Virus record (IMG/VR): IMGVR_UViG_3300032332_000934
Coordinates: 50,967-114,966 of that record
DNA length: 64,000 nt
From: a virus
Lineage: Duplodnaviria; Caudoviricetes
Strand: one strand, 5' to 3'
The notes below the pieces were generated by a model, which made no database searches, was not told where the DNA came from, and worked only from the letters and a program-made list of their open reading frames with translations. Within the stretch, counting starts at the first letter, position 1, and every line of letters starts with the position of its first letter. Positions 13,960 through 64,000 of the stretch are shown here, piece after piece. Both the position numbers and the translations under genes were made by a program.

Positions 13960-14257
13960 GTTTTTCCTCCCAGAAATCAATCAGCTCTTCCAACACTGAC
14001 CATTCTATTATACCAAGCCTTACCTTATTATCTGATCCTATTATAATTTTAAGTGCTGGGTGCATATCTCTATCAACTTTAAAAGTATCTGTACATATTT
14101 TAGCCCACACAAGTTTATTTAAATTAAATGAAGATTTAGATTCTTTATAGTCAACAAGAAACATTTTCCATTTAGCGTCACCTTTTTGATAATCACCTCG
14201 ACCACTATTTTTTTGAGCCTTAGCACCGTCTCTTTTTACTTCCGATCTTTCCGACAT
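13952..14257 (-). CDS. Putative PD-(D/E)xK resolvase-like endonuclease
   Basis: E...NSG...KGD...VDYKE pattern. Confidence 0.55.
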   Translation of the reverse strand: MSERSEVKRDGAKAQKNSGRGDYQKGDAKWKMFLVDYKESKSSFNLNKLVWAKICTDTFKVDRDMHPALKIIIGSDNKVRLGIIEWSVLEELIDFWEEKHV

Positions 14258-25127: not shown

Positions 25128-25364
25128 TTACCATTTACCTACAGGGCAAGTGGCTCCTTTAAGCTTTGTCTTTGCTGGCATAAAACATCCGCATTCCTGG
25201 CATGTCTTGACGCCGTTATTAAATTTTGGGCAGGCTTGGCATAATGAATATCTTGAGATTGCATCTTCTTCTGAGACATATTCTGTATTTGGATTTAAAA
25301 AATCCCACGGTTTTACATCATCGGAATTTACAAGTTTTTTAACCTGCTCCCACTTACTCACCAT
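25128..25364 (-). CDS. Small Cys-rich metal-binding protein
   Basis: CxxC...CxxCxC...CPxGKW. Confidence 0.7.
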   Translation of the reverse strand: MVSKWEQVKKLVNSDDVKPWDFLNPNTEYVSEEDAISRYSLCQACPKFNNGVKTCQECGCFMPAKTKLKGATCPVGKW

Positions 25365-25590
25365 CTGTTTGCCTCAATTCAAAAGACACGCCATTCCAAA
25401 AATAATTTGCCCCTGCTTTTGGGAAATCTGGTATATCAATATCAACATCTTCCAGATCTACCAATATTGGTGTGCTTGAAAGCCCAGCCCTTAAAAGATC
25501 AGTCCCAGGCCCAGCAATATTAAACCATCCTGCGTATTCGCCATTCACAAGAACCATATATGTGCTTCCTTGCATATCTGATTTATTCAT
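25354..25590 (-). CDS. Small fibre-associated protein with W[DN]GxxF motif
   Basis: VNGE...WNGVSF; own promoter TAGACA-N17-TAGAAT at 25613-25641. Confidence 0.55.
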   Translation of the reverse strand: MNKSDMQGSTYMVLVNGEYAGWFNIAGPGTDLLRAGLSSTPILVDLEDVDIDIPDFPKAGANYFWNGVSFELRQTDGE

Positions 25591-25652
25591 AATCTCTCCA
25601 TAACATTACAGTATTCTATCATTTCTATAAAATTTTGTCTAGCAACTTATTA

Positions 25653-26231
25653 CTATTTGCCAAAAGATATCACAGAATATTTTGTTCCCTCTAGTACAGG
25701 AAGTACTCTATGAATATACTCTATAGATGAAGGGAAAATAATAAGACTATCCTTAGATGGTTTGATTGGCATAGTATAGGCTTTATTCTTAAATTGAATC
25801 TCTCCACCCTCATAATCATCATTTATATAGTACACAAAAGATATCTTAGACGGGTGAGGAATTCCGTCATCTGAATGCCATGTAACGCTTTGTCCTTTTT
25901 CATACCTAAGAAGCTCCCACGGCTCTCTTTCTTTAATCTTTATTCCGCTTTTTTTTACAAAGTCTACTAGGCAATCTGAAACTGCTGTATCTATTTTTTT
26001 ATTCAATATCTTTTTTGCATTATTATAATTAATCCCATCCTGCTCATTTGCGTATAAAGAAAAAACAGTGCATGATCTTAGGGATAAGTCATAATCCCTA
26101 TTATTCATTGTTGATTGGCTAAAATCTTTTTTGTACAGATTAAATATACTATATACTTCTTTAAGGATATCTAAATCTGAGCCAATCACATCTTTATAAA
26201 TCAATATGTTGTTTCCTAAGTCTTGTATCAT
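25653..26231 (-). CDS. 2OG-Fe(II) oxygenase #5
   Basis: HSD...YINDDYEGGE...FPS...H.V.PV..GTKY; TAATG-coupled to the upstream Hint protein. Confidence 0.88.
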   Translation of the reverse strand: MIQDLGNNILIYKDVIGSDLDILKEVYSIFNLYKKDFSQSTMNNRDYDLSLRSCTVFSLYANEQDGINYNNAKKILNKKIDTAVSDCLVDFVKKSGIKIKEREPWELLRYEKGQSVTWHSDDGIPHPSKISFVYYINDDYEGGEIQFKNKAYTMPIKPSKDSLIIFPSSIEYIHRVLPVLEGTKYSVISFGK

Positions 26232-29200
26232 TAGTCTGGTATCTGCTTATCTGAATAATTGTGAGCCATTATACCTTCGGCAAAGTATATGTCCTTACTT
26301 TCAATATTAATAGAAACTGTGTCCACTTCCTCATTAATTAAAATTTTTGAATAGATTTCCACTATTTGGAGATCTTCGTTCATTATCTTGTTACCTAACT
26401 CAAGATCCCTGATGGATACAAATTTCCAAACCCCGTCTTTTTGTGCTGGAACCATATGCTCATAAGTTATTTTAATTGTATCATTAATAATATAGTATTG
26501 TCCATAAGATCTTATAACAACATTTGTAACTACAGCAGTAGTTTTTGTTGTTTCAGATATGTCATCCGATGACCATAGGTGCATATTAGTTATATCAAAC
26601 TCGTTATCCTGAAGTCCTGGGATTTCAGCAGCCATGACCTCATCTCCAATATAAAGATCTTCTATGTTTTTCCAGGTTCCGTCTGACATTTGAATTTGTG
26701 TTCCTACTACGTGGCAGCCTCCGCCTCCGCCAGTATTGACCGTATTTACAGTGTTAACAGTGTTAACATTATTGACAGTATTTACAGTATTGACGGTATT
26801 CACATTGTTTACAGTATTTACGTTGTTTACAGTATTGACTGTATTTACAGTATTAACTGTGTTAATAGTATTAATTGTATTAATAGTATTAATTGTATTG
26901 ATAGTATTAATTGTATTAATTGAATTACATGCTCGATATTCAAATTCATAACCATTTACTTCTCTAGTAGATAGTGTTGCACAGCTTGAATTTATACATG
27001 TTTCAATTGCTGTATAGGAACGTGATCTTGCTTCTTCTCCCTGATAGCATGAACCCCAAGCTGTCCAGGCTCCATATGATTTTGTTCCTACAGTACAGCC
27101 TGCGGTGCAGCAAGCAATGTACTCATATTCTGTTCCATTGACTTCTGTTGTAGTGCTGTTACAACTAGTATCAATATTAGTTTGTATTGCAGTCCAACTT
27201 CTTGATCTAGCACGTTCACCTTGGATACAGGATCCGTAGGCTGTCCATGCACCATAAGTTTTAGTGCCAGTTGTACTACTTGCCGTGCAGCAGCCAGTGT
27301 ACTCAAAATCTGTACCGCTAACTGTTTCAGTTGTATTAGTACAACTTGTTGTAAAGCATGATTGTGTAGCAGTCCAACTCCTCGATCTAGCACGTTCGCC
27401 CTGAATACAGCTACCAAATGCAGTCCATGCGCCATAGGTTTTTGCTCCAGTTGTACAGGACTGAACACAGCATGCTGTATATTCATATTCAGTTCCACTA
27501 ACTTCACTTGCAGAAACTAAATTGCAACTAGTGTCTATACATGTATTTATTGCCGTCCAAGATCTTGATCTTGCACGTTCTCCCTGAATACAGGATCCAT
27601 AGCCTGTCCAGGCTCCGTATGATTTTGCACCTAGCGTACAACCTGCAGTGCAACATGAGGTATATTCATACTCTGTGCCATTTACCTCTTTAGTTGTTGT
27701 TGTGCAGTTAATTGTATTGCTTGTTTCAATAGCAGTCCATGAGCGTGATCTAGCACGTTCACCTTGGATACAAGAACCAAATGCTGTCCAAGCTCCGTAA
27801 GTTTTGATTCCAATTGATGTACTTGCAGAGCAACAATTTTTATACTCAGTATCGTAACCAGTTGTTGTAACATATATAGTTGTGCAGTCCCTTGTTGTTT
27901 GTGTATCAGTTGCTGTCCATGGAATAGTTCTTCCAATTTGTCCAGTATTTAAATTACATGTCCCCCAAGCATTTGGAGTTCCATAAGTTTTAGGTCCAAG
28001 TGAGGAGGTGGGGACACAACAATTTACTTGCTCTGTTTCGCTTCCAGATAACTCAACAGTAGTTATTACACAATTTTTAGAAGTTGTTTTTTGATTTTGA
28101 GTCCATGTTCTTGTTCTATTTCTTTGTGGGTCTGCTGGATATGCTGTACACAGTCCGTATGTCCAATCTGAATAAACTTTAGGTTCTAAAACAACTAATG
28201 GGCAACATAGATTATCAATTTGAGAACATTCTATTGCATAATAAGATCCATTTATAGTTTTATCATATGTTTCTGTAGATTTGGAGCAAAGGCCACCAGT
28301 AACTGTTGATAAACAATACCAAGTTCCTCCAATAATTATACATACTGCACTTGATGTTACATAATCATATGAAACTGCAGTTAAATTTATATTATCTATT
28401 TTAGAAGTTATTGCCGTTAAGCATGAATTAGCTCCAGCAGTTACTCCTGTTACGGTTATCACATCTAAAGACCGAGTTGCCGTTCCGCTTGTTGCAGAAA
28501 CTGTTATATCAAACGTGCTTACTGTACTCCAATTGGTTATATTAACTTTATAACCAGATGAAGTTATATCATATGGCGCTCCTAAAGTTGCAGCAATTCC
28601 ATTTGAAAGTGTTCTAAAGCTCTTGGATATCTTATCGCTTTTATACTTATCATCTTGTCCAGCCAGCGCCGTTACTGAGACAGTATATAATCTATTTTCG
28701 CTTAAACCATAGGGACTAGATGAAGTAGTTGATGTTGAATTTAGCGGGTAACCTCCCAAAGAGTTTGCTGTAATAGAATCAATTAACTCAACCTTATACC
28801 TTTCAGCATTTGTTGAATACCAAGATATATCTGCGGAGCTTTTTGTTCTATTTGATATGGTTATTGTTGGATTTTCTATTTTTCTTGGCGGGGTAAATAC
28901 ATAAGATGCAACTCTTTGAGTTTCAGACATATCCAATAAATGTCCATCCAGCGATAACCCGCTATTATAATAATAATCATTTGCAATGGCATAAACATTA
29001 ATAATATAATCTTCTCCAGAATCAAGCATTGCTTGTGTATAAGTAATTGATGCTGAATATTGATGTGTTGTTGATAAAGATATACTTTGCAGATCCCCAA
29101 TTCTGGTTCCATAAAAATCAGTAAGTTCAACTATTTGCTTTCCAATAAATTCATTTGTCCGAGAAGATGGGAAATATTGACCAGTTGGATAAGTTGATAA

Positions 29201-29911
29201 TGCAGATGTAAGATATTGCCATTTAAGTCCAAATATTTTATTATCTTTATTACTTAATGTTTCATCTTCAACTATTTGATCGCCTGTGCTATATGTATAA
29301 AATTCAAAGTTAAGTTTTGGAAATATACCTGTAGCACTTGGGTACCATGTTGTTGCCAACAAGTAATCTGCCTCAGTTGGGTTTGCATCTATAGCTGCTT
29401 GAACCTGTGCCCTAAATCCTCTTTTGCTTTTAATGTCATCGAGTGTTATTACTGGTCTATTTGCAGGTAGCTTAGGAACCTCATCTAAATAATCTGAATC
29501 CTGATAGGTTGTATACTGGAGCTCTTCACTAATTAATGTTGTTGGAGCATCCCAATTTGTAATTATAGACTTTTGTATTTTAATTAAAAATGATAGCGGA
29601 TCTTCATACCACTTACCTCTTGTAACATACATTTTATCTTGCTGACTACATTCATATTTTGATTCGATTGAGCTTGTAGATACAAAAATTAATTGTGGAT
29701 TTATTTTTGGATAAGGAAAAGCTGCGCCAAAAATTCTTTCCCATATTCCGCTTGGGTTAAGTCGCCACATGCTTTTAATTTTAATCCAGCCGCCAACTGC
29801 GCCGCTAGTTTGTGTTGGTGAAGCTTTTCTCCAGATGCTTTTCATTTTAATCCAGCCGCCAACATTATGAGCGCCAGTATCTCCTGGTGAAGCTTTTCTC
29901 CAAACAGACAT
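26231..29911 (-). CDS. Large virion fibre/adhesin-like protein: Fn3 + 7 TSP1-like Cys repeats + ([IV]N[TN])21 + C-terminal Hint domain
   Basis: Fn3 (SADISW...Y.V...LSENRLYTVSVTA), YGAWTAFGSC..GERARSRSW repeats, GGGGG-CHVVGT...IEDL.IGDEV...AHN. Confidence 0.8.
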   Translation of the reverse strand: MSVWRKASPGDTGAHNVGGWIKMKSIWRKASPTQTSGAVGGWIKIKSMWRLNPSGIWERIFGAAFPYPKINPQLIFVSTSSIESKYECSQQDKMYVTRGKWYEDPLSFLIKIQKSIITNWDAPTTLISEELQYTTYQDSDYLDEVPKLPANRPVITLDDIKSKRGFRAQVQAAIDANPTEADYLLATTWYPSATGIFPKLNFEFYTYSTGDQIVEDETLSNKDNKIFGLKWQYLTSALSTYPTGQYFPSSRTNEFIGKQIVELTDFYGTRIGDLQSISLSTTHQYSASITYTQAMLDSGEDYIINVYAIANDYYYNSGLSLDGHLLDMSETQRVASYVFTPPRKIENPTITISNRTKSSADISWYSTNAERYKVELIDSITANSLGGYPLNSTSTTSSSPYGLSENRLYTVSVTALAGQDDKYKSDKISKSFRTLSNGIAATLGAPYDITSSGYKVNITNWSTVSTFDITVSATSGTATRSLDVITVTGVTAGANSCLTAITSKIDNINLTAVSYDYVTSSAVCIIIGGTWYCLSTVTGGLCSKSTETYDKTINGSYYAIECSQIDNLCCPLVVLEPKVYSDWTYGLCTAYPADPQRNRTRTWTQNQKTTSKNCVITTVELSGSETEQVNCCVPTSSLGPKTYGTPNAWGTCNLNTGQIGRTIPWTATDTQTTRDCTTIYVTTTGYDTEYKNCCSASTSIGIKTYGAWTAFGSCIQGERARSRSWTAIETSNTINCTTTTKEVNGTEYEYTSCCTAGCTLGAKSYGAWTGYGSCIQGERARSRSWTAINTCIDTSCNLVSASEVSGTEYEYTACCVQSCTTGAKTYGAWTAFGSCIQGERARSRSWTATQSCFTTSCTNTTETVSGTDFEYTGCCTASSTTGTKTYGAWTAYGSCIQGERARSRSWTAIQTNIDTSCNSTTTEVNGTEYEYIACCTAGCTVGTKSYGAWTAWGSCYQGEEARSRSYTAIETCINSSCATLSTREVNGYEFEYRACNSINTINTINTINTINTINTINTVNTVNTVNTVNNVNTVNNVNTVNTVNTVNNVNTVNTVNTVNTGGGGGCHVVGTQIQMSDGTWKNIEDLYIGDEVMAAEIPGLQDNEFDITNMHLWSSDDISETTKTTAVVTNVVIRSYGQYYIINDTIKITYEHMVPAQKDGVWKFVSIRDLELGNKIMNEDLQIVEIYSKILINEEVDTVSINIESKDIYFAEGIMAHNYSDKQIPD
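26258..26716 (-). other. Hint (bacterial intein-like) autoprocessing domain
   Basis: C1 in CHVVGT, block B ITYEH, terminal HN followed by Tyr. Confidence 0.85.
26732..26920 (-). repeat. Tripeptide repeat (INT)7 then (VN[T/N])14
   Basis: 21 degenerate 9-bp units with varied synonymous codons. Confidence 0.95.
26927..28210 (-). repeat. Seven ~60-aa (~180 bp) TSP1-like Cys-rich repeats
   Basis: K[TS]YGAWT..GSC.QGE.ARSRSWTA...GTEYEY..CC repeated; first two copies diverged. Confidence 0.9.
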
Positions 29912-36878: not shown

Positions 36879-37465
36879 ACCTGCTCCAGGGATAAGTTAA
36901 CACTCCAAAATGGTTGTAGTCCTCTTTTTATAATTGTAAAATCGCATGAGCTGAACATCATTGTATAAGTATAATCATCTGCTAATGCTCCGTCAGACTG
37001 TTCAACTAAATCTATAGAAAAAACTGTTGGATTCAATTTGATTCTAAATGGAAGACGCCCTGCAGTGCTTTCATAAAAATTCTTTAAATCTTCTGCTCCC
37101 CAGGCACCGTCTACCGTTTCGTTTCTAAAAGATGGCAACATTTCCCAGGATACATTTACTGATAACTTATCTGCAATAAAATATTTCCTCATTATTCCAT
37201 TTGCCATTCTCTGTCCAGTTTCAATTCTATTAATATTAAGAGATAATGGTGATCGATTATGCTCAGTAACTCTTCTAAATTTTAATTGATTTTTAGAACT
37301 AAGAGATAAATTATTTACAGTTGCAGTTGCAGAATTATATGTAGATCCTGGAGCGGTAACTGTAGCACCCTTATAATCAAATGAATTTGTTGCTGGATCA
37401 ATTGCAAATGGATCAATTGCCTCAATATAAAGTATTGAGCCTTTGCTTAAATTTTGAAAACTCAT
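36875..37465 (-). CDS. Distal tail-like protein
   Basis: Directly after tape measure; RMANG.MR, VSWEMLPS, ends LEQV. Confidence 0.65.
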   Translation of the reverse strand: MSFQNLSKGSILYIEAIDPFAIDPATNSFDYKGATVTAPGSTYNSATATVNNLSLSSKNQLKFRRVTEHNRSPLSLNINRIETGQRMANGIMRKYFIADKLSVNVSWEMLPSFRNETVDGAWGAEDLKNFYESTAGRLPFRIKLNPTVFSIDLVEQSDGALADDYTYTMMFSSCDFTIIKRGLQPFWSVNLSLEQV

Positions 37466-53228: not shown

Positions 53229-54809
53229 CTAGTTGACTTGTCTTCCATCTCCCTTTGTATTTCTGCCCTCCCCAGATTTATCTGGAGAATTGGCTGACCT
53301 TTCTTGATCACGAGTTCTGCTTTGTGTAGCTTGGGCTTTAATTTCGGCTGCTTGGGCTGCAAGATCTACTGGGACATCCCCACCGTCTCTTGGAACCATG
53401 CCCATTCTAACTCTAATTTCATTTGGAGTTATTACCTGGAATCTAAGATATCTTTCATCAATTTTAGATTGAGTATCAGCATCAGTAAGACTTAATTCAT
53501 TAAATTTAAGCTCTAAAGCATCAGTCATTTCCTGTACTATTTTATTTAATTTTTTCTCTAAAATATCTTGAGCTGGGGCACAAACTTGCTCTTTAAATGT
53601 TTTATCTGCGTCTCTAGCATTTGCCAAAGATACGCCAGTTGCAGTTCCAATTTTATTAATTGGAACTCTGTGGGCCATCAATATTTCATCCCTATTAGAT
53701 TGACGATAAATATTAAATGAAGACTCTTGAGATCCCGCTTCAATTGGCTCCATTTTAAATTCAGTTTTTGAATCTGGGGAATCTGGAGGAAGCGGAATAT
53801 ATAGAGATCTATGATTCTTGCCTCTTAATCCTACTTGGAAAAACTCAAGCAATTTTCTTTCTGATTCCGCAGAAAGCTTTGCTCCCTTTACTGTAATAAT
53901 ATATCTTGGTACCGCTTTATTCTCAAAGTAGTCTAAGTTATACTTACCAGCAAATTCATTACCAGCCATAGCATTTTGTGCTGCAATAATATCTGGGATA
54001 CCATAATAGTTATTTTTTGGAGTATACTTTTTTAAATGAATAATTTCATTTGGTCTATCTTCTTGGCCAGCTATTGGATTTACAGTTTTTGTGTCTCCAA
54101 AATTTCTAAAAAATACAGCCTTGCCATAAAGTAATTGAATAAAACCGTCTCTAAAGCGTCTTACACGCATTGTTTTTGAAGGTACATGCCCAATGTACCC
54201 AATCTTTCCAGTAGTGGTTCTACCGACCTCCAGATACCCATTACCAGTAGCTTCTACGTCTGTGTAAAACTTGATAAGCGTTTCTTTAAAAGTTTCATCA
54301 TCATTACAATCCTCAAGCCACGTATGAAGGTCTTGCTTAATTCTATTTAGCTTTTTGCGAGCACGGTCTAATTGCTTTTCATCTTCAATGCCGTCAAGGG
54401 CATCTGTAGTTTTTTTTGATTCAATAAAATCAAAGCCTAGGCCAACAATGTTAGAAACTTTTGCATTAATTGCAGCATAGTTATATGGAGAAATTTCATA
54501 AATAGTTGAAAGATAATCTAGATTATATTCTGGCTGTATTAGATCAAACATAGCATATCCGCTTACTGCCTGCTGAACTTGAAGTTGCTGGCTTACTGCG
54601 CCATCTTTACCTACAAATGCTTTTTGAAATTCTCTCGAAACTTTTCTTCTAAAAGATGGCCCAAGCCCAGAAAGCTTTAATATTTCTTCAGCATCCATTT
54701 CAAATGTATCGTCTGATTTTTGTGTTGTTGGATTATTAAATCTCATCCAGTCTGCGACATTAGATATTTCTACGCTATCTGCAACTGCATCTTCATCGTA
54801 TTCAATCAT
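53229..54809 (-). CDS. Portal protein (PBSX/HK97 family)
   Basis: TGNGYLE, NEIIHLK, YYGIP, YFENKAVP, ITPNEIR. Confidence 0.92.
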   Translation of the reverse strand: MIEYDEDAVADSVEISNVADWMRFNNPTTQKSDDTFEMDAEEILKLSGLGPSFRRKVSREFQKAFVGKDGAVSQQLQVQQAVSGYAMFDLIQPEYNLDYLSTIYEISPYNYAAINAKVSNIVGLGFDFIESKKTTDALDGIEDEKQLDRARKKLNRIKQDLHTWLEDCNDDETFKETLIKFYTDVEATGNGYLEVGRTTTGKIGYIGHVPSKTMRVRRFRDGFIQLLYGKAVFFRNFGDTKTVNPIAGQEDRPNEIIHLKKYTPKNNYYGIPDIIAAQNAMAGNEFAGKYNLDYFENKAVPRYIITVKGAKLSAESERKLLEFFQVGLRGKNHRSLYIPLPPDSPDSKTEFKMEPIEAGSQESSFNIYRQSNRDEILMAHRVPINKIGTATGVSLANARDADKTFKEQVCAPAQDILEKKLNKIVQEMTDALELKFNELSLTDADTQSKIDERYLRFQVITPNEIRVRMGMVPRDGGDVPVDLAAQAAEIKAQATQSRTRDQERSANSPDKSGEGRNTKGDGRQVN

Positions 54810-55213: not shown

Positions 55214-56977
55214 TTATAGGATTTGTAACACGACTCTGTCTCTAGAGTATGTTCTTACTGACTCTTCTGTCAAGGTTACTGACGATCCTTGGGCAATTGA
55301 GGCTGGCTTGCCAATATACAGGTCGTAATGCTCTTGATGACTAATAGCATCATTAGCATATAGCGCTATATTTTGATATAAATTGTCATCTAATACACCT
55401 GATCTTACACCCAATAATTGCTTTCCATTAAACCATATTTGACCAGTTATTGCAGCAGTTGTCTTTATTAGTATATAGTTTGGCTCTCCTATATAAAGGT
55501 ATGAAGATATGTTTGTAGCAGATGAGGCATCTTGGCCATTGATATAGATATTGCTAATATTAGACTTTGTTATTGCTCCGCCTGCCGCCCATGATAGTGC
55601 CGTTTCTACAGAGCCAGTTTTGTTAAACAAGATATGACCGTTAGACAATGTTTTTGGAGTAAAGACCATCTCAATGTTTCTATTTTGTGCAACAGAATCA
55701 ATAAAGAAAGCTGAAGATTTTGGTCGTATCCCATCTTTATAATTTCTTGATCTTGCTGGATAGTTTTCATTTGAAATATCAAAATCCCACAGTGTTCCTG
55801 TTGTTGGCTGTGATGTAGACAATGTGCTTCCACCATTATGAGCAAACATTCTTTTTTGTGAGTAGAAATAAACCTTTAAAGAATAAAGTTCTGGCAAGTA
55901 CACATCTGAATTTGTAGAATTAAATACAAATTTAAAATATAATACTTTTGTTGAAGAAAAACTAGATCCTTGAGAAAATCCTGGAATGGATGACCCATTT
56001 ACACAAGCAGTCCATGGGCCAGATGCTGAAGTTTCTGAAACATACACTGAAACTCCACTAGAAGATACCCAGTCAATCTTTGAAGACACATAGCTTTTTG
56101 TCATGTTTAAAACCATATCCTCTACAAACTCACCAGATGTAAATCCTGAATTTAAATAAATGCTGTTATTGTTTTTGCTATAAGATAGCGCTTGGTTATC
56201 ATAAATTAAAGTATCCCAGGAAACTTGTGCTGGATAAACATATTTAGTTTCCACATCTTGGTATCTTTCTGACGCCCTAAACAGCTCACCTAAATCTGGC
56301 ACTGAAACCTGCTCATCATTATTTAAAAATAAATTATTATAGTGTGAAAGTATGGATCTGTGAGATAGTGAATATCTATATGCAGCTGGACAATCAATTA
56401 TAAAATATTCTCCAGATAAAGCGGGTCCTGAAGAAAGAACAAGGCTAGTGTTTGTAAACTTAACAGATATGTATTTAGATGCTACCAATACACCATCAAC
56501 ATAAAGACTCATATGAGAAACTGAATATACACCAACAATATGAATTACTCTATTTGGATTAGGAACAGAGTAATCAATTCTTTCCCCTTCTAATTTAAAT
56601 ACAGCATTCCCATTATCCCAATATAACCCGATGCCACTTGAGTCAGCAAGTACGGGTGTTAGGGATGTTATTGTTTTTGGATGTATCCATGCTTCTAATG
56701 TAAAATCATTATCATACGTTGAATTTGTTGCAAACCCTCCCGTACCAACTGTTCCAGAAAAATCTTTTGATATAGTAAATTGCAAATAGTTTGCGCTATC
56801 TATTTTATTAGAATGTACTCCACCAGATACAATTGGCATACCCGATTTAGATATTTGTCCCAAATAGGATCCATTATTTCCGCACCCAGAAGTGTCATAG
56901 GCTATTGATCCAGATGATTCATCTAGCTTCCATAAACCTATAGGTGAGTCTTTAATTGATGCTAAGTAGTAGGACAT
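55214..56977 (-). CDS. LamG/concanavalin A-like domain virion protein
   Basis: PIGLWKLDE...DTSG.GN, FTLEAWI, HIVGVY...LYVDG; leaderless TGATATAAT promoter (56984-56992). Confidence 0.8.
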   Translation of the reverse strand: MSYYLASIKDSPIGLWKLDESSGSIAYDTSGCGNNGSYLGQISKSGMPIVSGGVHSNKIDSANYLQFTISKDFSGTVGTGGFATNSTYDNDFTLEAWIHPKTITSLTPVLADSSGIGLYWDNGNAVFKLEGERIDYSVPNPNRVIHIVGVYSVSHMSLYVDGVLVASKYISVKFTNTSLVLSSGPALSGEYFIIDCPAAYRYSLSHRSILSHYNNLFLNNDEQVSVPDLGELFRASERYQDVETKYVYPAQVSWDTLIYDNQALSYSKNNNSIYLNSGFTSGEFVEDMVLNMTKSYVSSKIDWVSSSGVSVYVSETSASGPWTACVNGSSIPGFSQGSSFSSTKVLYFKFVFNSTNSDVYLPELYSLKVYFYSQKRMFAHNGGSTLSTSQPTTGTLWDFDISNENYPARSRNYKDGIRPKSSAFFIDSVAQNRNIEMVFTPKTLSNGHILFNKTGSVETALSWAAGGAITKSNISNIYINGQDASSATNISSYLYIGEPNYILIKTTAAITGQIWFNGKQLLGVRSGVLDDNLYQNIALYANDAISHQEHYDLYIGKPASIAQGSSVTLTEESVRTYSRDRVVLQIL

Positions 56978-57016: not shown

Positions 57017-57712
57017 TTAAACCATCCAGTGTGTAGTAAACATTATCTTGTTACCCTTTGTAACAGGAAGAGATTCATGTAGGTATGGGTGAACTGAAGG
57101 GAAAAGAACCAGGCTTCCCGCCTTTGGTTTAATTTTTATATCTTGATTTTTAAAGTAAATCTCTCCACCCTCATAGTCATCATTAAGATAGCATACCAAG
57201 GAATACTTTAAATTTTCTCCAGTACCAGATGGATCTTCTGCGTCACAGTGTGGTCCCATTCCTTTTCCAGTATCATACTTTGCAACCTTAATATAATCAA
57301 GCCCCATTTTAATTTGTTCTGGAGTACTGTCTACCTTTTGAATATTAGAGACATCTCTACGCATTATTTCAGCGTATCTTTTTGCACACATTTCTGGAGC
57401 CATAATTAAACTATTTACAACATATAAAACTTGCTTATTTAGCATATCATCATCTGAGTTTAATTGTTTTTTAGAAGTGTCTATAAACTTCTGAATACCG
57501 TACCCAAAATTATCATCGTTGCTTGCTCCCCAACTGCTCCATTTTGGTATTCCGCTATATGATTTTGGATTAGCATCTAAATCTTCCATTAAAGATAGAA
57601 GCTTTTCTGGATAGCTAATAACGTTTTCAAAGTACACTATGCCTCTATCGTGATAAACAATATCAAACATTGTGTACATTTGTCTTGGTTGAACTTCTTT
57701 AATTTCCATCAA
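57017..57712 (-). CDS. 2OG-Fe(II) oxygenase #6
   Basis: HCD...YLNDDYEGGE...KPKAGS..FPS...H...GNK. Confidence 0.88.
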   Translation of the reverse strand: MMEIKEVQPRQMYTMFDIVYHDRGIVYFENVISYPEKLLSLMEDLDANPKSYSGIPKWSSWGASNDDNFGYGIQKFIDTSKKQLNSDDDMLNKQVLYVVNSLIMAPEMCAKRYAEIMRRDVSNIQKVDSTPEQIKMGLDYIKVAKYDTGKGMGPHCDAEDPSGTGENLKYSLVCYLNDDYEGGEIYFKNQDIKIKPKAGSLVLFPSVHPYLHESLPVTKGNKIMFTTHWMV

Positions 57713-58478
57713 CTTCTCCGATTTCTGCTAATGCAGCATCATACTCTCTACCGTCTGGAGTTCTTCTTTTGCCGCTATCTCTTATTTCTTTCCACTCCTG
57801 CTGTTCTACTTTTTGCTGTTTTCTTGTCTCATCAATTTCTTCGGCCCATCTAGCTTTTGTTTCTTCGGGATATTCTTCTTCAGGTCTATCATCCCAAAAA
57901 GAACCAACAGTGTATCTATCGCTTTTAAACACTGGAAGAACCTCATGAGTATTCTCATGGCCGCCATCAAAAATAGCAAGCATTCCAGTTTTAGGTTTAA
58001 CTGTCAAATCAAAATTTTTAAAGTTAAGCTCTCCACCATCAAAATCATCATTTAAATAAAGGAAACCTGCGTATCTACTTCTTTCAAAAGCACTGGGTTT
58101 TCCATCGTAACTATTGTCTGAGTGGAAAGCTGCATAAGCGCCAGGAATCCATTTTTGGCTATGGAAGCTTATCTTGTAAGCTTCTCCCCCAATTATTTCT
58201 CTTGCTGCATTTTTAAACTTTTCTTCTAGGTCATCGAGAAAATTGTCTGGAAGCCCAGCATCTTCATACCATTTAGCTAATTTATTTTTGTCATCAGTTA
58301 ACTGATTTGGCATATTATAAGCATAGGATTCATAAAAAGAAATTGGATGCCATTCAAAGTCTCCACTTTCAATTAAATTATTAAACATCTTAATTATTCC
58401 AGCAGATTCTTCTTTAGTTAAAAAGTCTTCATAAAGATAAACTGGATGCTCATTATCTCTAGCTTTAATTAACTTCAA
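57699..58478 (-). CDS. 2OG-Fe(II) oxygenase #7
   Basis: HSD...YLNDDFDGGE...HEV...DRYT. Confidence 0.88.
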   Translation of the reverse strand: MKLIKARDNEHPVYLYEDFLTKEESAGIIKMFNNLIESGDFEWHPISFYESYAYNMPNQLTDDKNKLAKWYEDAGLPDNFLDDLEEKFKNAAREIIGGEAYKISFHSQKWIPGAYAAFHSDNSYDGKPSAFERSRYAGFLYLNDDFDGGELNFKNFDLTVKPKTGMLAIFDGGHENTHEVLPVFKSDRYTVGSFWDDRPEEEYPEETKARWAEEIDETRKQQKVEQQEWKEIRDSGKRRTPDGREYDAALAEIGEVDGN

Positions 58479-59320
58479 TTGTATATGCCTCCGTCAATTT
58501 TTATATCCATTATATCTTCATAGGATATAACCTTCTTATCTCTTATATAAATCATATTCCTTGGATCGTCATTTGCAATTCTTTCAATTTCTTGCTTTGA
58601 CCACTTATAAGCACCATATCTCTTTTGATTAGCCAGCCATTCTTTAGAGCCATCATAATCAAACATAACAAAGTTTCTGATAAAGAACTTATTGCCGTCT
58701 GGTATTGTTTTTACTCCATGATAAAATGGCTCACCTGATGGAAACACTAGTAGGTCTCCTGCTACGGGTTTATGATTTACAAACTTGCCACCAACATAAA
58801 ATTCAATATCTCCACCATTATAGTTATCATTTATATAAAATGTACATGTTGTATGGAATTTTTCTCCAGGCATATCTTTTTGAGAAATAATAAAATCTGT
58901 GTGATATTGCATTGTCATTTGATTTTTTAAAGTATCAATTAGATTAAAATATTTACACCAGGATTGTCCGCTATATCTTGCACCTTGTGGAATTTCAATT
59001 CCAGTGTGATTAAAATAATGTGATATTGCTTTGTCGTAAGAGTTTGCAATTTCTTCAAATAGAGCTTTTTCTTCATTAAAAATTTCATTTTTTTCAGCTA
59101 TATCAAGTAACGGCTGCTCTTTGGCTTGTGTATATGTTCCATATTGAGCCCATGGAGTCCACTGTTGGAAAAAGTTACTCTGGTCTGAAGACTCTGAACG
59201 CATCATTATCTTGTATGCTAAGTCTGGATCCTTTAACATTCCTCTATACAAAATTACGCCTGGAAGTAATTCTGTCCAGTTTAAAGAGTCTATGTCATTT
59301 ACTATATTTAAATTATGCAT
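58475..59320 (-). CDS. 2OG-Fe(II) oxygenase #8
   Basis: HTD...YINDNYNGGD...KPVAGD..FPS...YHGV...NKFF. Confidence 0.88.
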   Translation of the reverse strand: MHNLNIVNDIDSLNWTELLPGVILYRGMLKDPDLAYKIMMRSESSDQSNFFQQWTPWAQYGTYTQAKEQPLLDIAEKNEIFNEEKALFEEIANSYDKAISHYFNHTGIEIPQGARYSGQSWCKYFNLIDTLKNQMTMQYHTDFIISQKDMPGEKFHTTCTFYINDNYNGGDIEFYVGGKFVNHKPVAGDLLVFPSGEPFYHGVKTIPDGNKFFIRNFVMFDYDGSKEWLANQKRYGAYKWSKQEIERIANDDPRNMIYIRDKKVISYEDIMDIKIDGGIYN

Positions 59321-59323
59321 TTA

Positions 59324-60070
59324 TTAGCCCCTATCTCCATAAAGCTTTTGCCAAGATGGCGATTTAAATTGATCTGAATAGTTTTGTGGAGGCTGAGTCT
59401 CTCCAGTGTGTTTTAAAATTGTCCAAAAAAATGGAGCTGTAAATCTATTTCCAGATTTTACTGGACGGACTCCATGAGTATAGTATTTATCTCCTGGGAA
59501 AAAATATGCTGCTCTTGGTTTTGGTTTAAATTCAATTCCGTGTGTTGGAAAATAAAGTTCTCCGCCTTCATACTTATCATCAAAATAAAATAGACCAGCA
59601 ATATCGTAATAAGGAAAATCATTTGGTCTTCCTTCTTCTTCGCCCGTATGGAACTCTTTATCCGCATGAGGCTCTTGTCTTGCTCCAACTGGCCATCTTA
59701 CTATTGCTGGGCCAGTGGCTTGCACATCGACATCAAAAAATTTATCTACTTCTATCTTAAGTCTATTAATCATATCCCAAAGAAGATCAATTATTGCTGG
59801 ATCTGATTTCTTTAGTGAGCCAGCAGTGCATACTCTATCTTCCCATATATTTGCATCATATAGAACTAATCCATCTTCATCAATGTGAGTTTCTGTTTTA
59901 TCCCAAATTTTATTTGTTAGGGCAAAATTAATAAGACGCTGTTGCTCTTCTTCTGTTATAAAGTTTTGTAGTTCTACAATATTATCTATTGAATCACCAA
60001 AAAATCCAGATGGTGTTATTGATATTGGGGCTTTTCCGCCTCCCATAATTCCTTGATTAACTATTTCCAT
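59324..60070 (-). CDS. 2OG-Fe(II) oxygenase #9
   Basis: HAD...YEGGELYF...HGVRPV..GNRFT; leaderless TGGTATATT promoter (60077-60085). Confidence 0.88.
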   Translation of the reverse strand: MEIVNQGIMGGGKAPISITPSGFFGDSIDNIVELQNFITEEEQQRLINFALTNKIWDKTETHIDEDGLVLYDANIWEDRVCTAGSLKKSDPAIIDLLWDMINRLKIEVDKFFDVDVQATGPAIVRWPVGARQEPHADKEFHTGEEEGRPNDFPYYDIAGLFYFDDKYEGGELYFPTHGIEFKPKPRAAYFFPGDKYYTHGVRPVKSGNRFTAPFFWTILKHTGETQPPQNYSDQFKSPSWQKLYGDRG

Positions 60071-60094
60071 AAATACAATATACCATATTCTATA

Positions 60095-60811
60095 TTAAAT
60101 ATCACTAGGGCTATCCTGTATAACCTTTAGCTTTAAAGCTTTTATTTCATGATCTCCAAGTTTATTGCCCTTATGGTCAAAACCATTTCTATAAAAATCA
60201 GACCAACTAAGTTTTTTGTTTATTTCATGAATTGCCATAGAGTATTCATATAATTCTTTTTGTGAGACTTCTTGATCTTTTGGTTCAACTTCTACATGAA
60301 TCTCTGAATTATTTAAATCTGTCAATTTTATCGGTATTATAGAGCATATTGGGTGGCCAGCTGGAATTGTAATTTTTTTGTTTGGTGAAGTAATCATCCA
60401 GGCTACTGGAAGATCTGCTCTAAAAAAAGATGTACTTATTAGTGTTGTAAAAGGATATGCTCCGTCAATAAAAAAATTAGGCGCTGGCATAGTTAATAAA
60501 GTTGTATCTTTTTCAGTTTTAAATTTAATTCCAGTATTAAAACTTATTGTTCCGTTTGCTCTTCCTGGGTAAGCATACTTTTCACCTGATAAAATTTTAA
60601 CATGAGATGGATCAAAATTTGAAATACCATCCCAAATAAAAGTTATATCTTCTGGGAAACTTAAATACCATCCTAATGTATTTGTTAAAGTTACTGGAAA
60701 ACAATGATAGGCATGCTTTTGCCAAGTGCTATCCATCCAATCTCTTTTAACTGGAAGAGTATTTATTTCTGCAAAACCTTCTTTGGTTTTATAAGCTTTT
60801 ATTATTTCCAC
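60095..60811 (-). CDS. DUF6065-like protein
   Basis: RDWMD...HAYHCFP...N..GW...WDG...PN motifs. Confidence 0.7.
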   Translation of the reverse strand: MEIIKAYKTKEGFAEINTLPVKRDWMDSTWQKHAYHCFPVTLTNTLGWYLSFPEDITFIWDGISNFDPSHVKILSGEKYAYPGRANGTISFNTGIKFKTEKDTTLLTMPAPNFFIDGAYPFTTLISTSFFRADLPVAWMITSPNKKITIPAGHPICSIIPIKLTDLNNSEIHVEVEPKDQEVSQKELYEYSMAIHEINKKLSWSDFYRNGFDHKGNKLGDHEIKALKLKVIQDSPSDI

Positions 60812-61484
60812 TCAATGCACTTTCTCTTGCAGCGGCAGAGTTGGTCCTTTTCATTCTAAGAAGATCAAACTCCTGATTATGAGTATTGTCATTGTAATCA
60901 AGCATTGTAACTATTGAATACTTAATTCCTGATTTGACTGGCATTGCTCTGTGTGAAAACAAATAAGTTGAAGGAAAAATAACTATGTCTCCAGCTTCTG
61001 GAGTTATGGTTAAGTTAAGTTTAGGGAAATATAATTCCCCTCCTTCATAGTCATCGTTTGGATACGAAACCAATGAAACTGTTGCTATATAAGAAAATCC
61101 ATGATCTGAATGCTCTTGGAAATGTTGACCTTCTCCATATTTAATGAAGTTCATTGCTTCCCAAAATTGCATATCAATATTATAAAGCTTACAGTAATCT
61201 TTAACTGCATCTATTTGCATATCGTATGCGTTTTGCCAGATTTTATTTAAATGTTTTCTGCTTTCTGGCATGTTAGGCATTTCCTGTTTTTGAATTTTAA
61301 AATCTACACAGTCTCTATATGAAGGTACTTTTACATCATAACCTACTGTTGCTTCTCGCCATTCAAATTCATCATCATACTTAGACAATAGATTTTCTAC
61401 GTCATTGATAATATTTTTATCTATTTGATTTTTATAAACCCATAGACCAGGAGATATCTCATTTTTTAAAATATCCTTACTCAA
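60789..61484 (-). CDS. 2OG-Fe(II) oxygenase #10
   Basis: HSD...NDDYEGGELYF...AGD..FPS...H..MPV..GIKY. Confidence 0.88.
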   Translation of the reverse strand: MSKDILKNEISPGLWVYKNQIDKNIINDVENLLSKYDDEFEWREATVGYDVKVPSYRDCVDFKIQKQEMPNMPESRKHLNKIWQNAYDMQIDAVKDYCKLYNIDMQFWEAMNFIKYGEGQHFQEHSDHGFSYIATVSLVSYPNDDYEGGELYFPKLNLTITPEAGDIVIFPSTYLFSHRAMPVKSGIKYSIVTMLDYNDNTHNQEFDLLRMKRTNSAAARESALSGNNKSL

Positions 61485-61496
61485 TTTTAAAGCTCC

Positions 61497-61901
61497 CTAC
61501 TCTGTGAAAGAAGTACCATCCCAGGACATGCCAGTTTTTATTGCTGTGCTATCCATTTCAGTTACATCAATTGCAGAAATCCCATTGACTTCTGCATCCT
61601 TGTAGAGAGTATATCTTTTTTGAGTATAAACTCTTACAACTGCTTTTATTGTATTATCAGATACAAGTGCTACTGAATATGGTGAAGCTTCTTTTCTTTC
61701 TTCATCAAACTCAGAGAACACGTTGCCATCCCAAGTAGAATTTAATTTAACCTTTTTAGTTTCGGTTATATCTTTACATAAAAAATTAGAATTAAATAGC
61801 TCTGTAAATCTCTCTAATCTATTTGCATCTTCTTCTACATTTTCTACTTCAATCTTATCAATAACTTTATTTAATGATAGGAGTACGTAATTTTTTATCA
61901 T
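61497..61901 (-). CDS. Fibre-associated protein with two WDGxxF motifs
   Basis: STWDGNVF and MSWDGTSF; internal duplication. Confidence 0.6.
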   Translation of the reverse strand: MIKNYVLLSLNKVIDKIEVENVEEDANRLERFTELFNSNFLCKDITETKKVKLNSTWDGNVFSEFDEERKEASPYSVALVSDNTIKAVVRVYTQKRYTLYKDAEVNGISAIDVTEMDSTAIKTGMSWDGTSFTE

Positions 61902-61931
61902 AGTGATACCTCATTTATATTTTTTTTCATA

Positions 61932-62855
61932 TTAGTACGCTCTTAAGCTAAAGTATCCGCCAAATGCTGGTGGGCTGAAGAAGCCAGGTGGGAAGAACGG
62001 TGGGCTAAAGAAGCCAGGTGGGAAGAACGGTGGGCTAAAGAAGCCAGGTGGGAAGAACGGTGGACTAAAGAACACTGGCGGAAAGAAAGGTGGGGAAAAG
62101 AAGCCAGGTGGGAAGAACGGTGGGCTAAAGAAGCCAGGTGGGAAGAACGGTGGGCTAAAGAAGCCAGGTGGGAAGAACGGTGGGCTAAAGAAGCCAGGTG
62201 GGAAGAACGGTGGGCTAAAGAATGAAGGGGGCAAAGTTGTAACAGTACTAGAGAAAGCTGAAAATGAACTAGAGCCATTTACATTTCTTGCCCGTACTTT
62301 GTAAGCTTGTGAAGTATTTGCTTCATTTGCAATAGTTGTGCTTCCATTTGATGCGGTTGTAACTGTTTTATTTTTTGGAGTCGTTTCGTTTGATTCAATA
62401 TATATGTCAAGTATTGTCTGTCCACCATTAGCATTAAGTACCCAGCTAATTGTATCTAGGTCAACGCCAGCTGTTGCTGTTGGGGTATTTGGTGCTTGTG
62501 GAACAGTAGTTGCTGTTGCTGCTGGTGCAGCAACTGCATTTGAAGAATTATCTAAATAGGAGTCGTAAGACGAAACTGCATATGTATGTGAAGTATTTGA
62601 CAACAAGCCAGTTATTAAAGCTGTATTTGTGCCATAAGCAACAGTTGCCTTTAGAACTCCAGACTCATAAACTTTATATCCAGTAGGTGTATTTCCTGCT
62701 ACTGGCGCTGACCATGAAACTGTAATTGCTCCGTCATTAAATGGTCTACCGTTGTTTGATCCGTTTAGATAATCTGTTGCGGTTACTCCAGTTACTGGAT
62801 TTGGTCCAATAAAGTTATCTTGAGCAGATGACTTTCTACCTATATGTTTTGACAT
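61932..62855 (-). CDS. Two-Fn3-domain protein with C-terminal Pro/Phe decamer repeats
   Basis: VSWSAP...GYKV...TGL..NT..TYAV, YKVRARN; tail (PPFFPP[G/V]FFS)8. Confidence 0.85.
   Translation of the reverse strand: MSKHIGRKSSAQDNFIGPNPVTGVTATDYLNGSNNGRPFNDGAITVSWSAPVAGNTPTGYKVYESGVLKATVAYGTNTALITGLLSNTSHTYAVSSYDSYLDNSSNAVAAPAATATTVPQAPNTPTATAGVDLDTISWVLNANGGQTILDIYIESNETTPKNKTVTTASNGSTTIANEANTSQAYKVRARNVNGSSSFSAFSSTVTTLPPSFFSPPFFPPGFFSPPFFPPGFFSPPFFPPGFFSPPFFPPGFFSPPFFPPVFFSPPFFPPGFFSPPFFPPGFFSPPFFPPGFFSPPAFGGYFSLRAY
61981..62220 (-). repeat. Eight tandem 30-bp units (+ strand AAGCCAGGTGGGAAGAACGGTGGGCTAAAG)
   Basis: Six identical copies, one with one substitution, one with several synonymous changes plus G>V. 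Confidence 0.97.
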
Positions 62856-62881: not shown

Positions 62882-64000
62882 TTAAGCTTTTAGATCTCCA
62901 GCAAGCAACCAAGTATCTGTTGCAACCTTTGTTAGTGTTGCAGAAGATGCTGTAGATCTTAGTGTCTGTCCTGGTGTAGCAAGTGGTGTTACACCTGAGG
63001 CAAATACAAAGTTTGCTCCAGTTCCAGATGCTTGGTAGAAGCTTATTGAAGTTCCAATTGGATATGCTGTTGTTGCATTCAATGGAACTGTAATTGTTTG
63101 TGTGCCTGAAATTGGTATTAACTGATCTCTTAGAGCAAGTCCGCCTGTTGATAGGTTGTATGCTGCAGAAATTGTAGTTCCAATTGTAGTTCGTGATGGA
63201 ACTCCTTCTTTTGTTTGTGTACCATCTGAAAACTGCACACCATTTGCTGACATATTTGATGTTCCAGATACTGTAATATTTGCTACAGTATTTGTACCTG
63301 TAAATGTTGGTGAAGCAAGTGGTGCATAAGTTGATGCAGCTGTTGCTGAAGCGAGCTTAAGATCAAGTGCTGTTTGTGTAGCAGTTGATATTGGCTTTGC
63401 TGTATCTGCTGTGTTGTCAACTGAACCTAGACCAACCATTGACTTTGTTATACCAGACACTGTTCCTGTAAATGTTGGTGAGGCAAGTGGAGCTTTTAAT
63501 GCAATTGAGTTTGTTATTGTTGTTGAGAATGATGCGTCATTTCCAAGAGCAGTTGCTAACTCATTAAGAGTATCTAATGCTGCTGGTGCTGATGCCACGA
63601 GGTTTGAAACAGCTGTTCCTACAAATGCTGTAGTTGCAACTTGAGTTGTATTTGTTCCCGCTGCTGCTGTTGGTGCAGTCGGTGTACCAGTAAGTGCTGG
63701 TGAGGCTAATGGAGCTTTTAAAGCTACATTAGAAATTGTTTCATAAGTTGTTGCAGCTGTTGCTGAAGCGAGCTTAAGATCAAGCGCTGTTTGTGTAGCG
63801 GTTGAGACTGGCTTAGCTGTATCTGCTGTGTTGTCAACTGAACCTAGACCAACCATTGACTTTGTTATACCAGACACAGTACCTGTGAATGTTGGTGAAG
63901 CAAGGTCTGCTTTTAATCCTAAGCTTGTTGAAAGGCCTGAGATCTTAGACTGAGCAATACCTGCTGATGCGTTAACGTCTGCATCAACAATTGTTCCATC
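62882..64000 (-). CDS. Tail fibre-like repeat protein (5' end beyond window)
   Basis: Frame open to window end; PLASPTFTG, VGLGSVDNT.D..KPVSTA, APAALDTLNELA repeats; C-terminal WLLAGDL domain. Confidence 0.85.
   Translation of the reverse strand, partial: DGTIVDADVNASAGIAQSKISGLSTSLGLKADLASPTFTGTVSGITKSMVGLGSVDNTADTAKPVSTATQTALDLKLASATAATTYETISNVALKAPLASPALTGTPTAPTAAAGTNTTQVATTAFVGTAVSNLVASAPAALDTLNELATALGNDASFSTTITNSIALKAPLASPTFTGTVSGITKSMVGLGSVDNTADTAKPISTATQTALDLKLASATAASTYAPLASPTFTGTNTVANITVSGTSNMSANGVQFSDGTQTKEGVPSRTTIGTTISAAYNLSTGGLALRDQLIPISGTQTITVPLNATTAYPIGTSISFYQASGTGANFVFASGVTPLATPGQTLRSTASSATLTKVATDTWLLAGDLKA
63336..63904 (-). repeat. ~150-bp intragenic direct repeat (63336-63487 and 63753-63904)
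   Basis: Near-identical copies encoding ASPTFTGTVSGITKSMVGLGSVDNTADTAKP.STATQTALDLKLASATAA. Confidence 0.9.

Follow-up and report, generated by a model that had tools for sequence, protein, structure and literature searches.

The prolyl 4-hydroxylases (P4Hs) of the chlorovirus PBCV-1 and of algae have proline-rich repeats as their substrates. Aquatic phages, above all cyanophages, carry many 2-oxoglutarate (2OG) and Fe(II) dependent oxygenases, which tend to be listed among the auxiliary metabolic genes. In this paper we describe a module of the virus record IMGVR_UViG_3300032332_000934 (114,966 bp), located in its last 64 kb (positions 50,967 to 114,966; this whole stretch of 64,000 nucleotides is called the window). 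Here an Fn3 protein with a tail of Pro/Phe repeats is followed by five P4H-like oxygenases (Oxy1 to Oxy5) and a protein of the family DUF6065. We put the probability that this phage hydroxylates its own Pro/Phe tail at prolines, and that DUF6065 acts together with Oxy2, at roughly 0.55.

The nearest characterised enzyme-substrate logic is that of the PBCV-1 P4H (PDB 5c5t) with the Pro-rich repeats of the same virus, together with the P4Hs of algae and of B. anthracis (2jig, 3itq). Shared with PBCV-1 are the virus-encoded enzyme of the P4H type, the Pro-rich repeats in the genome and the HxD...H motif with a Lys at position +10. In contrast to PBCV-1, the module described here belongs to a bacteriophage and comprises five diverged paralogues plus DUF6065 in an operon-like block instead of one enzyme. 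Moreover, the candidate substrate is encoded directly upstream, is Pro/Phe-rich (PPxFF) and not PAPK- or SPPPP-like, and carries a Hint domain in relatives. The sequence identity between the array oxygenases and the solved P4Hs is low, and prolyl 4-hydroxylase activity is here a prediction from sequence.

A tandem dioxygenase array past the tail-fibre genes is known from Synechococcus phage Syn9 (gp41-gp54). It comprises 10 dioxygenases, a dUTPase-fold protein with a conserved Cys, tryptophan halogenases and a JmjC (MINA-like) member (Iyer et al. 2010, PMC2938197). This account, the only detailed reading of such arrays that we found, interpreted the cluster as a pathway for secondary-metabolite synthesis and named no substrate (PMC2938197). 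Both arrays consist of several tandem, divergent dioxygenases and a dUTPase-fold protein with a conserved Cys (the invariant C36 in our case), and both are placed after fibre genes. Unlike in Syn9, no Pfam match to a tryptophan halogenase or a JmjC protein was found between 57017 and 62855. According to a prediction of the same study, co-encoded enzymes first hydroxylate and then sulfate the collagen-like and tail-collar proteins of bacteria (PMC2938197). The logic of a co-encoded repeat protein, hydroxylation and then decoration is shared by such hydroxylase/sulfotransferase operons, the eukaryotic Skp1 and extensin pathways and our module, for which candidate decoration enzymes lie beside distant DUF6065 genes (PF11397, HPAT-family glycosyltransferases, sulfotransferases). 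However, the repeat studied here differs from those of both collagen (Gly-X-Y) and extensin (SPPPP).

The initial annotation of this DNA had considered such a system as not described in bacteriophages. This has to be narrowed, as dioxygenase arrays are known from Syn9 since 2010 (PMC2938197), but a candidate protein substrate linked to such an array was not found in the literature searched. Searches of the literature on DUF6065, on Hint domains in phage fibres, on phage prolyl hydroxylation and on freshwater actinophage oxygenases did not turn up the module. What is new is that the array is consistently paired with one particular candidate substrate, that this substrate also exists in a Hint-capped form, and that there is evidence connecting DUF6065 with hydroxylases.

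The Pro/Phe-tailed protein and the oxygenase array

The module consists of the following features, with coordinates given for the window:

61932..62855, minus strand: Fn3-Fn3 protein of 307 amino acids (aa), the candidate substrate, with the C-terminus ...PPAFGGYFSLRAY after eight SPPFFPP[GV]FF decamers
61969..62222, no strand assigned: 30-bp tandem repeat encoding the decamers (Tandem Repeats Finder: 8.5 copies, 91% matches, no indels)
61497..61901, minus strand: WDGxxF protein of 134 aa; it has two WDGxxF motifs and is shared with the closest relatives only
60789..61484, minus strand: Oxy1, P4H-like 2OG-Fe(II) oxygenase (PF13640, E 7e-13); H124, D126, H177 and K187 invariant
60095..60811, minus strand: DUF6065 protein (PF19541, E 3.6e-31, 108.9 bits, cut-off 26.6)
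59324..60070, minus strand: Oxy2, better conserved than the other oxygenases of the array (PF13640); H134, D136, H198 and R208 invariant
58475..59320, minus strand: Oxy3, with a helical C-terminal extension (PF13640); H139, D141, H200 and K210 invariant
57699..58478, minus strand: Oxy4 (PF13640); H118, D120, H177 and R187 invariant
57017..57712, minus strand: Oxy5 (PF13640); H154, D156 and H211 invariant, K221 in this phage and Arg in most relatives

The matches to PF13640 and PF19541 confirm the series that had been read from the sequence at the outset, namely the Fn3 protein, the WDGxxF protein, an oxygenase, DUF6065 and four more HxD...H oxygenases. Likewise, the earlier count of eight Pro/Phe decamers with 40% Pro and 40% Phe holds down to the single residue. 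Exactly eight SPPFFPP[G/V]FF decamers make up residues 214-293 of the Fn3 protein, and the composition of this tract is P 0.40, F 0.40, S 0.10 and G 0.09. The Fn3 assignment of the window protein itself is weak (PF00041, E 5e-4, 20.6 bits, below the cut-off of 25), and homologues with 40-60% identity pass PF00041 with E 1e-8 to 1e-13, some of them with two Fn3 stretches.

Studying 80 non-redundant Pro/Phe-tailed proteins reveals a repeat unit of the form [AS]PP[G/S/V/none]FF, which is present in 3-20 units (median 9). The commonest unit includes Pro-Pro-Gly; X-Pro-Gly is the target triplet of collagen P4H. The repeat is conserved as protein while its DNA diverges among the relatives, and the Pro/Phe tail occurs only on Fn3 proteins of phage-sized contigs. 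An alternative-frame open reading frame (ORF) at 61943..62278 (minus strand, 111 aa, HRSSHLASLA repeats) was considered as a gene and rejected as a frame artefact, because it lies wholly within the 30-bp repeat and because the relatives conserve the Pro/Phe frame.

In 45 of the 80 proteins the repeat runs directly into a Cys or Ser and a domain of ~160 residues (for example ...APPRFG and then CINEDTLIL), whose profile matches the bacterial intein-like (BIL) domain 2lwy (2e-6) and the Pho RadA intein (5e-5). Because the repeat stands directly before this Hint domain, it would become the mature C-terminus after self-cleavage. The Hint domain after the repeat resembles known BIL/Hint domains (e.g. 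PDB 2lwy) and the self-cleaving C-terminal chaperone domains of phage tailspikes. Unlike these systems, the window protein possesses no Hint domain and ends 14 residues past the last decamer, and the cleavage in the relatives is a putative one. Of the 80 proteins 28, among them the one in the window, terminate with the motif G..[IL]R[AFSI]Y, which is short.

A second, Cys-rich protein of 785-801 aa, which shares its APPVFF repeat with the Fn3 protein of the same genome, is encoded ~8 kb upstream in the related loci L036, L038, L039, L042, L058 and L059. Where two Pro/Phe-tailed proteins are found within one genome, their end motif is identical (e.g. GSRFIRSY or GGGFIRIY), which suggests concerted evolution or a shared partner.

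All five oxygenases exceed the PF13640 cut-off of 27 (29.5-56.2 bits). Ortholog alignments were built for each gene of the array with 20-26 sequences (20-24 for each oxygenase and 26 for DUF6065). The HxD...H triad and a basic residue (Lys or Arg) ten positions after the distal His are kept in every oxygenase throughout these orthologues. In the window proteins this residue is a Lys in Oxy1, Oxy3 and Oxy5 and an Arg in Oxy2 and Oxy4, in agreement with the three of five that had initially been credited with a distal Lys of the P4H type.

Profile searches of solved structures place every oxygenase nearest to protein prolyl and lysyl hydroxylases. The structures matched are the B. anthracis P4H (3itq), the PBCV-1 P4H (5c5t), human P3H1 (8k0e), LH3 and enzymes of the PiuC type. 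Oxy5 has the PBCV-1 enzyme 5c5t as its best solved match (1e-9; 3itq 2e-8), and the Oxy1 profile matches 3itq with 2e-8. Oxy3 was chosen for modelling because its sequence matches were the weakest, and is thus placed by predicted fold and profile, Oxy1, Oxy2, Oxy4 and Oxy5 by sequence profile only. The top Foldseek matches of the Oxy3 model (pLDDT 90) are PHD2, P3H1, the Skp1-type PHD of Dictyostelium and the EF-Tu P4H of Pseudomonas; PolD of polyoxin biosynthesis is also among its structural matches. Neither the profile searches of the five oxygenases nor the search with the Oxy3 model gave matches to AlkB, TET or JBP above noise. A grouping with AlkB/TET had been named beforehand as the outcome adverse to the idea of protein hydroxylation; the enzymes group instead with protein prolyl/lysyl hydroxylases, by profile and in the case of Oxy3 by fold.

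The five oxygenases are at most 44% identical to each other, over short cores only, and are old paralogues. That each of them is kept as its own ortholog group, and in the same order, argues for non-redundant roles.

DUF6065 and its association with hydroxylases

The model of the DUF6065 protein (pLDDT 91) shows a barrel like that of dUTPases and dCTP deaminases (Foldseek probability 1.00). In a ranking by VIA-align Z (best 10.1) the ranks 1-14 and 16-22 are taken by dUTPases, dCTP deaminases and herpesvirus proteins derived from dUTPases. Catalysis by trimeric dUTPases depends on a strictly conserved Asp of motif III. In the 26-sequence alignment of DUF6065 no invariant or near-invariant Asp is found, and the conserved residues include R22, W24, Y34, C36 (the invariant Cys), P38, N43, R83, N111 and H220. 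Because a conserved Cys/His/Arg/Trp set is present in place of an invariant Asp, we regard DUF6065 as a dUTPase-fold protein and not as a dUTPase. It is likely the dUTPase-fold Cys protein noted in 2010 in Syn9, with weak support for homology, as an hhalign comparison with Syn9 gp43 gave E 0.004 at a probability of 9% and one with gp46 gave no match.

In total 1408 relatives of DUF6065 were found in a search of 1.8 billion representative proteins. The long forms include eight fusions with a PF13640 oxygenase, one with a JmjC/Cupin_8 hydroxylase and one with a Stf0 sulfotransferase (natural fusion proteins P0175, P0186, P0230, P0237, P0242, P0246, P0260, P0268, P0267 and P0229). Six of the eight PF13640 fusions have an oxygenase half that resembles Oxy2 more than the other oxygenases. 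The Oxy2 gene directly follows DUF6065 in the window, and DUF6065 is likely a partner of Oxy2. The fusions also suggest that it could be a general partner of protein hydroxylases.

The gene context was sampled for nine distant DUF6065 members, of which two are fusions and uninformative and seven are unfused, one of these on a contig that is too short. Two of the six informative DUF6065 genes adjoin PF11397, to which the Skp1 hydroxyproline GlcNAc-transferase belongs, and a third adjoins PF23452, the family of the plant hydroxyproline arabinosyltransferases. One lies within a PqqD/ABC/sulfotransferase/methyltransferase set, one within a phage array of ten oxygenases, and the last adjoins a ribonucleotide reductase fragment. 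Fusions and neighbours together point to a role of DUF6065 in the modification of protein or peptide side chains and not in nucleotide metabolism. PF11397 and PF23452 gave no match in the genome of this phage, and control genomes were equally silent.

The distant cassettes L170:702-4339 and L174:5858-8756 contain a WxDGxxF protein, DUF6171, a PF13640 oxygenase, DUF6065 and a PF11397 glycosyltransferase. In L174 the backbone of LamG, small gene and portal is retained, and an Ig-like protein bears a PPPPPPPTTPPPTPPPTTPPP tract.

Repeat and array in related loci

With the Fn3 protein as seed 79 viral loci were collected, and with DUF6065 as seed 80 loci. About 65 of the 79 Fn3-seeded loci show the same succession of Fn3 protein with PPxFF repeat, Oxy1, DUF6065, Oxy2-Oxy5, LamG, small gene and portal, with 40-77% identity. 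These syntenic loci have one to three copies of DUF6065, and every oxygenase matches its own orthologue. Repeat and array are both present in 65 Fn3-seeded loci, and two apparent exceptions are explained by a locus that ends 500 bp past the gene and by a short repeat which was missed by the search pattern. In the other direction, 40 DUF6065-seeded loci contain 3 kb or more of DNA before the array, and in all 40 a PPxFF-repeat ORF precedes it on the same strand. The co-occurrence check suggested in the initial annotation thus finds repeat and array together wherever this is testable, in both search directions and over roughly a hundred fragments of related phages. The pairing extends to L172, with a DUF6065 of another 50% cluster, in which a 217-aa protein ending in ~25 FPPF/FPPY units is directly followed by three oxygenases, DUF6065 and five more oxygenases.

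Seven Fn3-seeded loci have a TPFGF/FTPFGAFG tail with no Pro-Pro, and no canonical array. Because these loci hold other enzymes, namely 1-2 PF13640 genes, weak DUF6065-like genes and a GNAT-like gene, the contrast is one of a different cassette and not of no cassette. Tail type and cassette type change together among the relatives. In a quick tree of the Fn3 domain the TPFGF group requires three changes, at least two of which are forced by well-supported branches.

The TPFGF loci (cassettes at L071:6081-12511, L041:3064-5059 and L050:10302-17439) also carry 2-3 paralogues of a ~210-aa family with the invariant motif WH[DE]H...GHPH...R.T.AYD, possibly a metal site. As it gave no PDB or profile match and no hhalign match to Oxy1, this family is not called an oxygenase here.

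Genomic setting and the possible target of the array

The genes which surround the module, and a second cassette 33 kb away, are the following:

62882..64000, minus strand: 3' part of a fibre-like gene; the full gene encodes 827 aa and wraps over the end of the record
55214..56977, minus strand: LamG-domain protein of 587 aa, which borders the module downstream and has its syntenic counterpart in gp47 of Streptomyces phage Genie2
53229..55150, minus strand: conserved 113-aa gene and portal gene (the portal itself 53229-54809)
25128..29911, minus strand: parallel cassette with a 1226-aa Fn3/Cys-rich protein, OxyA, a 78-aa FWNGVSF protein and a 78-aa DUF6171-like protein

In the direction of transcription a block of fibre-like genes is followed by the Fn3 protein, the WDGxxF protein, Oxy1, DUF6065, Oxy2, Oxy3, Oxy4 and Oxy5, and then by the LamG protein, the 113-aa gene, portal, protease and major capsid protein. 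The last gene of the fibre-like block, directly upstream of the Fn3 protein gene, is the 827-aa one; its in-window part has no Pfam match, and an Mtd_N-like start becomes visible once the record is rotated. Gene order and Pfam matches agree with the location between fibre and head genes, on one strand, that had been noted initially. The module genes between the fibre and portal genes, all on the minus strand, overlap or are spaced by 4-39 bp. No terminator-like site was found on the minus strand from 62855 to 55214, with the promoter and terminator scans performing at chance level. Streptomyces phage Genie2 has the LamG-like gene, the small gene and the portal in identical order, without oxygenases before them.

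The record has a 113-bp terminal repeat and the assembly is therefore closed. The GC content is ~35%, and nearly all genes are carried by the minus strand. No RNA run is listed among the sequencing runs with this sequence, lake or freshwater labels come only from runs with small shares of it, and contigs of such runs break within the Pro/Phe repeat and thus carry no information on variation of its copy number. The WhiB gene in the phage genome and the portal protein, which is 60% identical to portals of Streptomyces phages of the Stanwilliamsviridae, identify this uncultured virus as an actinobacteriophage. These portals belong to the 131-kb Streptomyces phages of the BE cluster (Stanwilliamsviridae), to be set against the 35% GC of this genome, which suggests a low-GC aquatic branch of the Stanwilliamsviridae. 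A very long tape-measure-like ORF (2826 aa) lies at 37465-45945 (minus strand) of the window.

In the parallel cassette the C-terminus of the 1226-aa Fn3/Cys-rich protein consists of a (V/I)N(T/N) x21 tract, GGGGG and a Hint domain. Directly downstream lies OxyA (192 aa, PF13640 E 1.5e-14), which together with Oxy1 forms a pair of reciprocal best paralogues. The 78-aa DUF6171-like protein is Cys-rich. Small W[DN]GxxF proteins are present in both cassettes (61497-61901 and 25354-25590, both minus strand), and another one is found in the distant locus L170. With the 134-aa WDGxxF protein, searches of Pfam and PHROG gave nothing up to E 10, and the ESM Atlas gave weak leads only, with a tail fibre assembly protein (Caudo_TAP) at 0.75-0.76. 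The W[DN]GxxF motif recalls tail-fibre assembly proteins, a lead that is not accompanied by a profile match. PF13640 genes outside the array lie at 10828-13980 and 6552-7139 of the window and at 36199-36879 of the genome (all minus strand). Three tandem PF13640 paralogues of 337-362 aa have Oxy3 as their nearest relative in the array.

In the mechanism that we favour, the Fn3-Fn3 protein with its low-complexity tail ([AS]PP[GSV-]FF)n would be made late, at the time when the fibre and head genes are expressed. Prolines of the tail would then be hydroxylated by the five prolyl-hydroxylase-like oxygenases or by some of them, and DUF6065 would team with Oxy2, be it as an accessory subunit or for a subsequent step. 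In most relatives the Hint domain, initiated by Cys or Ser, would detach by self-cleavage, so that the mature protein would end with the repeat; in this phage the short end motif G..[IL]R[AFSI]Y stands in place of the Hint domain. The modified tail probably serves a fibre or decoration protein in attachment or adhesion. The clustering of a substrate with its tailoring enzymes, as proposed in the initial annotation, has gained from the P4H-type family of the enzymes, from the co-occurrence and from the joint switches of tail and array (at least two on the Fn3 tree), and is kept here as a candidate pairing.

Several points weigh against this mechanism. A place of the Fn3 protein in the virion would follow from its gene position, which is the sole basis for it. 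Searches of GenBank phages with the 5.8-kb module (as DNA), the Fn3-repeat protein and the DUF6065 protein were all without a match, and no isolate carries the module. The close co-occurrence is all found within one phage lineage, so that the loci are not independent samples and synteny alone explains much. The independent switches number only about 2-3, on a tree from a short, quick and unfinished run, and the TPFGF loci are not enzyme-free. Of the 11 PF13640 genes genome-wide six lie outside the array and do not adjoin the repeat gene, and the array of Syn9 has no Pro-rich neighbour protein. Finally, the Oxy1/OxyA subfamily may not be Pro-specific, because OxyA follows a (V/I)N(T/N) tail which is not Pro-rich; it could either serve tails of differing composition or target something else that is common to both cassettes.

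It is conceivable, but in our view rather unlikely, that the oxygenases target other proteins and that the tail, syntenic with them, is merely structural or used for docking. Such targets could be EF-Tu or ribosomal proteins of the host, on which bacterial and eukaryotic PHD-type enzymes act, or the fibres, LamG and W[DN]GxxF proteins of the phage. This would agree with the EF-Tu-hydroxylating P4H of Pseudomonas among the fold matches of Oxy3 and with the scattering of eleven oxygenases over the genome. It would also agree with Oxy1 and OxyA, closest paralogues which have different tails upstream and a W[DN]GxxF neighbour in common, and with the distant L170, which again couples a WxDGxxF protein and an oxygenase. 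The same end motif on two Pro/Phe-tailed proteins per genome fits docking. However, repeat type and array switch jointly, the PPxFF gene is always directly upstream of the array, and also the distant array of L172 is preceded by a protein with an FPPF/FPPY tail. Moreover, five conserved, non-redundant enzymes are many for one host target.

Hydroxylation of the tail could also be taken further than in the mechanism above. Different oxygenases might generate a heavily and diversely hydroxylated Pro/Phe polymer with 4-hydroxyproline, 3-hydroxyproline or dihydroxyproline and perhaps beta-hydroxy-Phe, which would serve as an adhesive or extensible tail and which in relatives the Hint thioester would release or covalently ligate to a partner. 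A polymer of this kind would be comparable to the decapeptides of mussel foot proteins or to plant extensins; we regard this proposal as speculative and unlikely.

The strict linkage to the repeat gene and the location in the structural gene block make it improbable that the module encodes a secondary-metabolite pathway for a small molecule or peptide, with DUF6065 as one of its enzymes and an unrelated repeat protein. A halogenase, a non-ribosomal peptide synthetase, an ATP-grasp or a precursor-peptide gene is not found in the module, and the neighbours of DUF6065 include hydroxyproline glycosyltransferase families that act on proteins. On the other side stand the similarity of Oxy3 to PolD of polyoxin biosynthesis, the one DUF6065 context with a PqqD/ABC-transporter set of the peptide type, and the interpretation given to the Syn9 cluster (PMC2938197). 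A pathway for nucleotide or DNA base hypermodification, for which the dUTPase/dCTP-deaminase-like fold of DUF6065 (Z ~10) and the PHROG label 'DNA endonuclease' on some relatives of Oxy2 and Oxy3 (regarded by us as an inherited mis-annotation) could be quoted, is highly improbable, given that the 26 DUF6065 sequences share no invariant Asp, that none of the oxygenases matches AlkB, TET or JBP above noise, and that the fusions and neighbours of DUF6065 belong to protein- or peptide-modifying families.

The module supplies an easily synthesised candidate substrate (APPGFF and SPPFFPPGFF peptides) beside five conserved, ordered enzymes and DUF6065. If the phage hydroxylates its own Pro/Phe tail, structural proteins of bacteriophages would prove to be hydroxylated in the manner of collagen or extensin. 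DUF6065 would thereby gain a function, and the self-cleavage of Hint domains would be tied to the maturation of low-complexity fibre tails. If, in addition, the tail is a diversely hydroxylated polymer, it would define a new class of post-translational modification of phage virions with DUF6065 as a new accessory, and would provide the first assigned substrate for the orphan 2OG oxygenases of phages, which form a large family.

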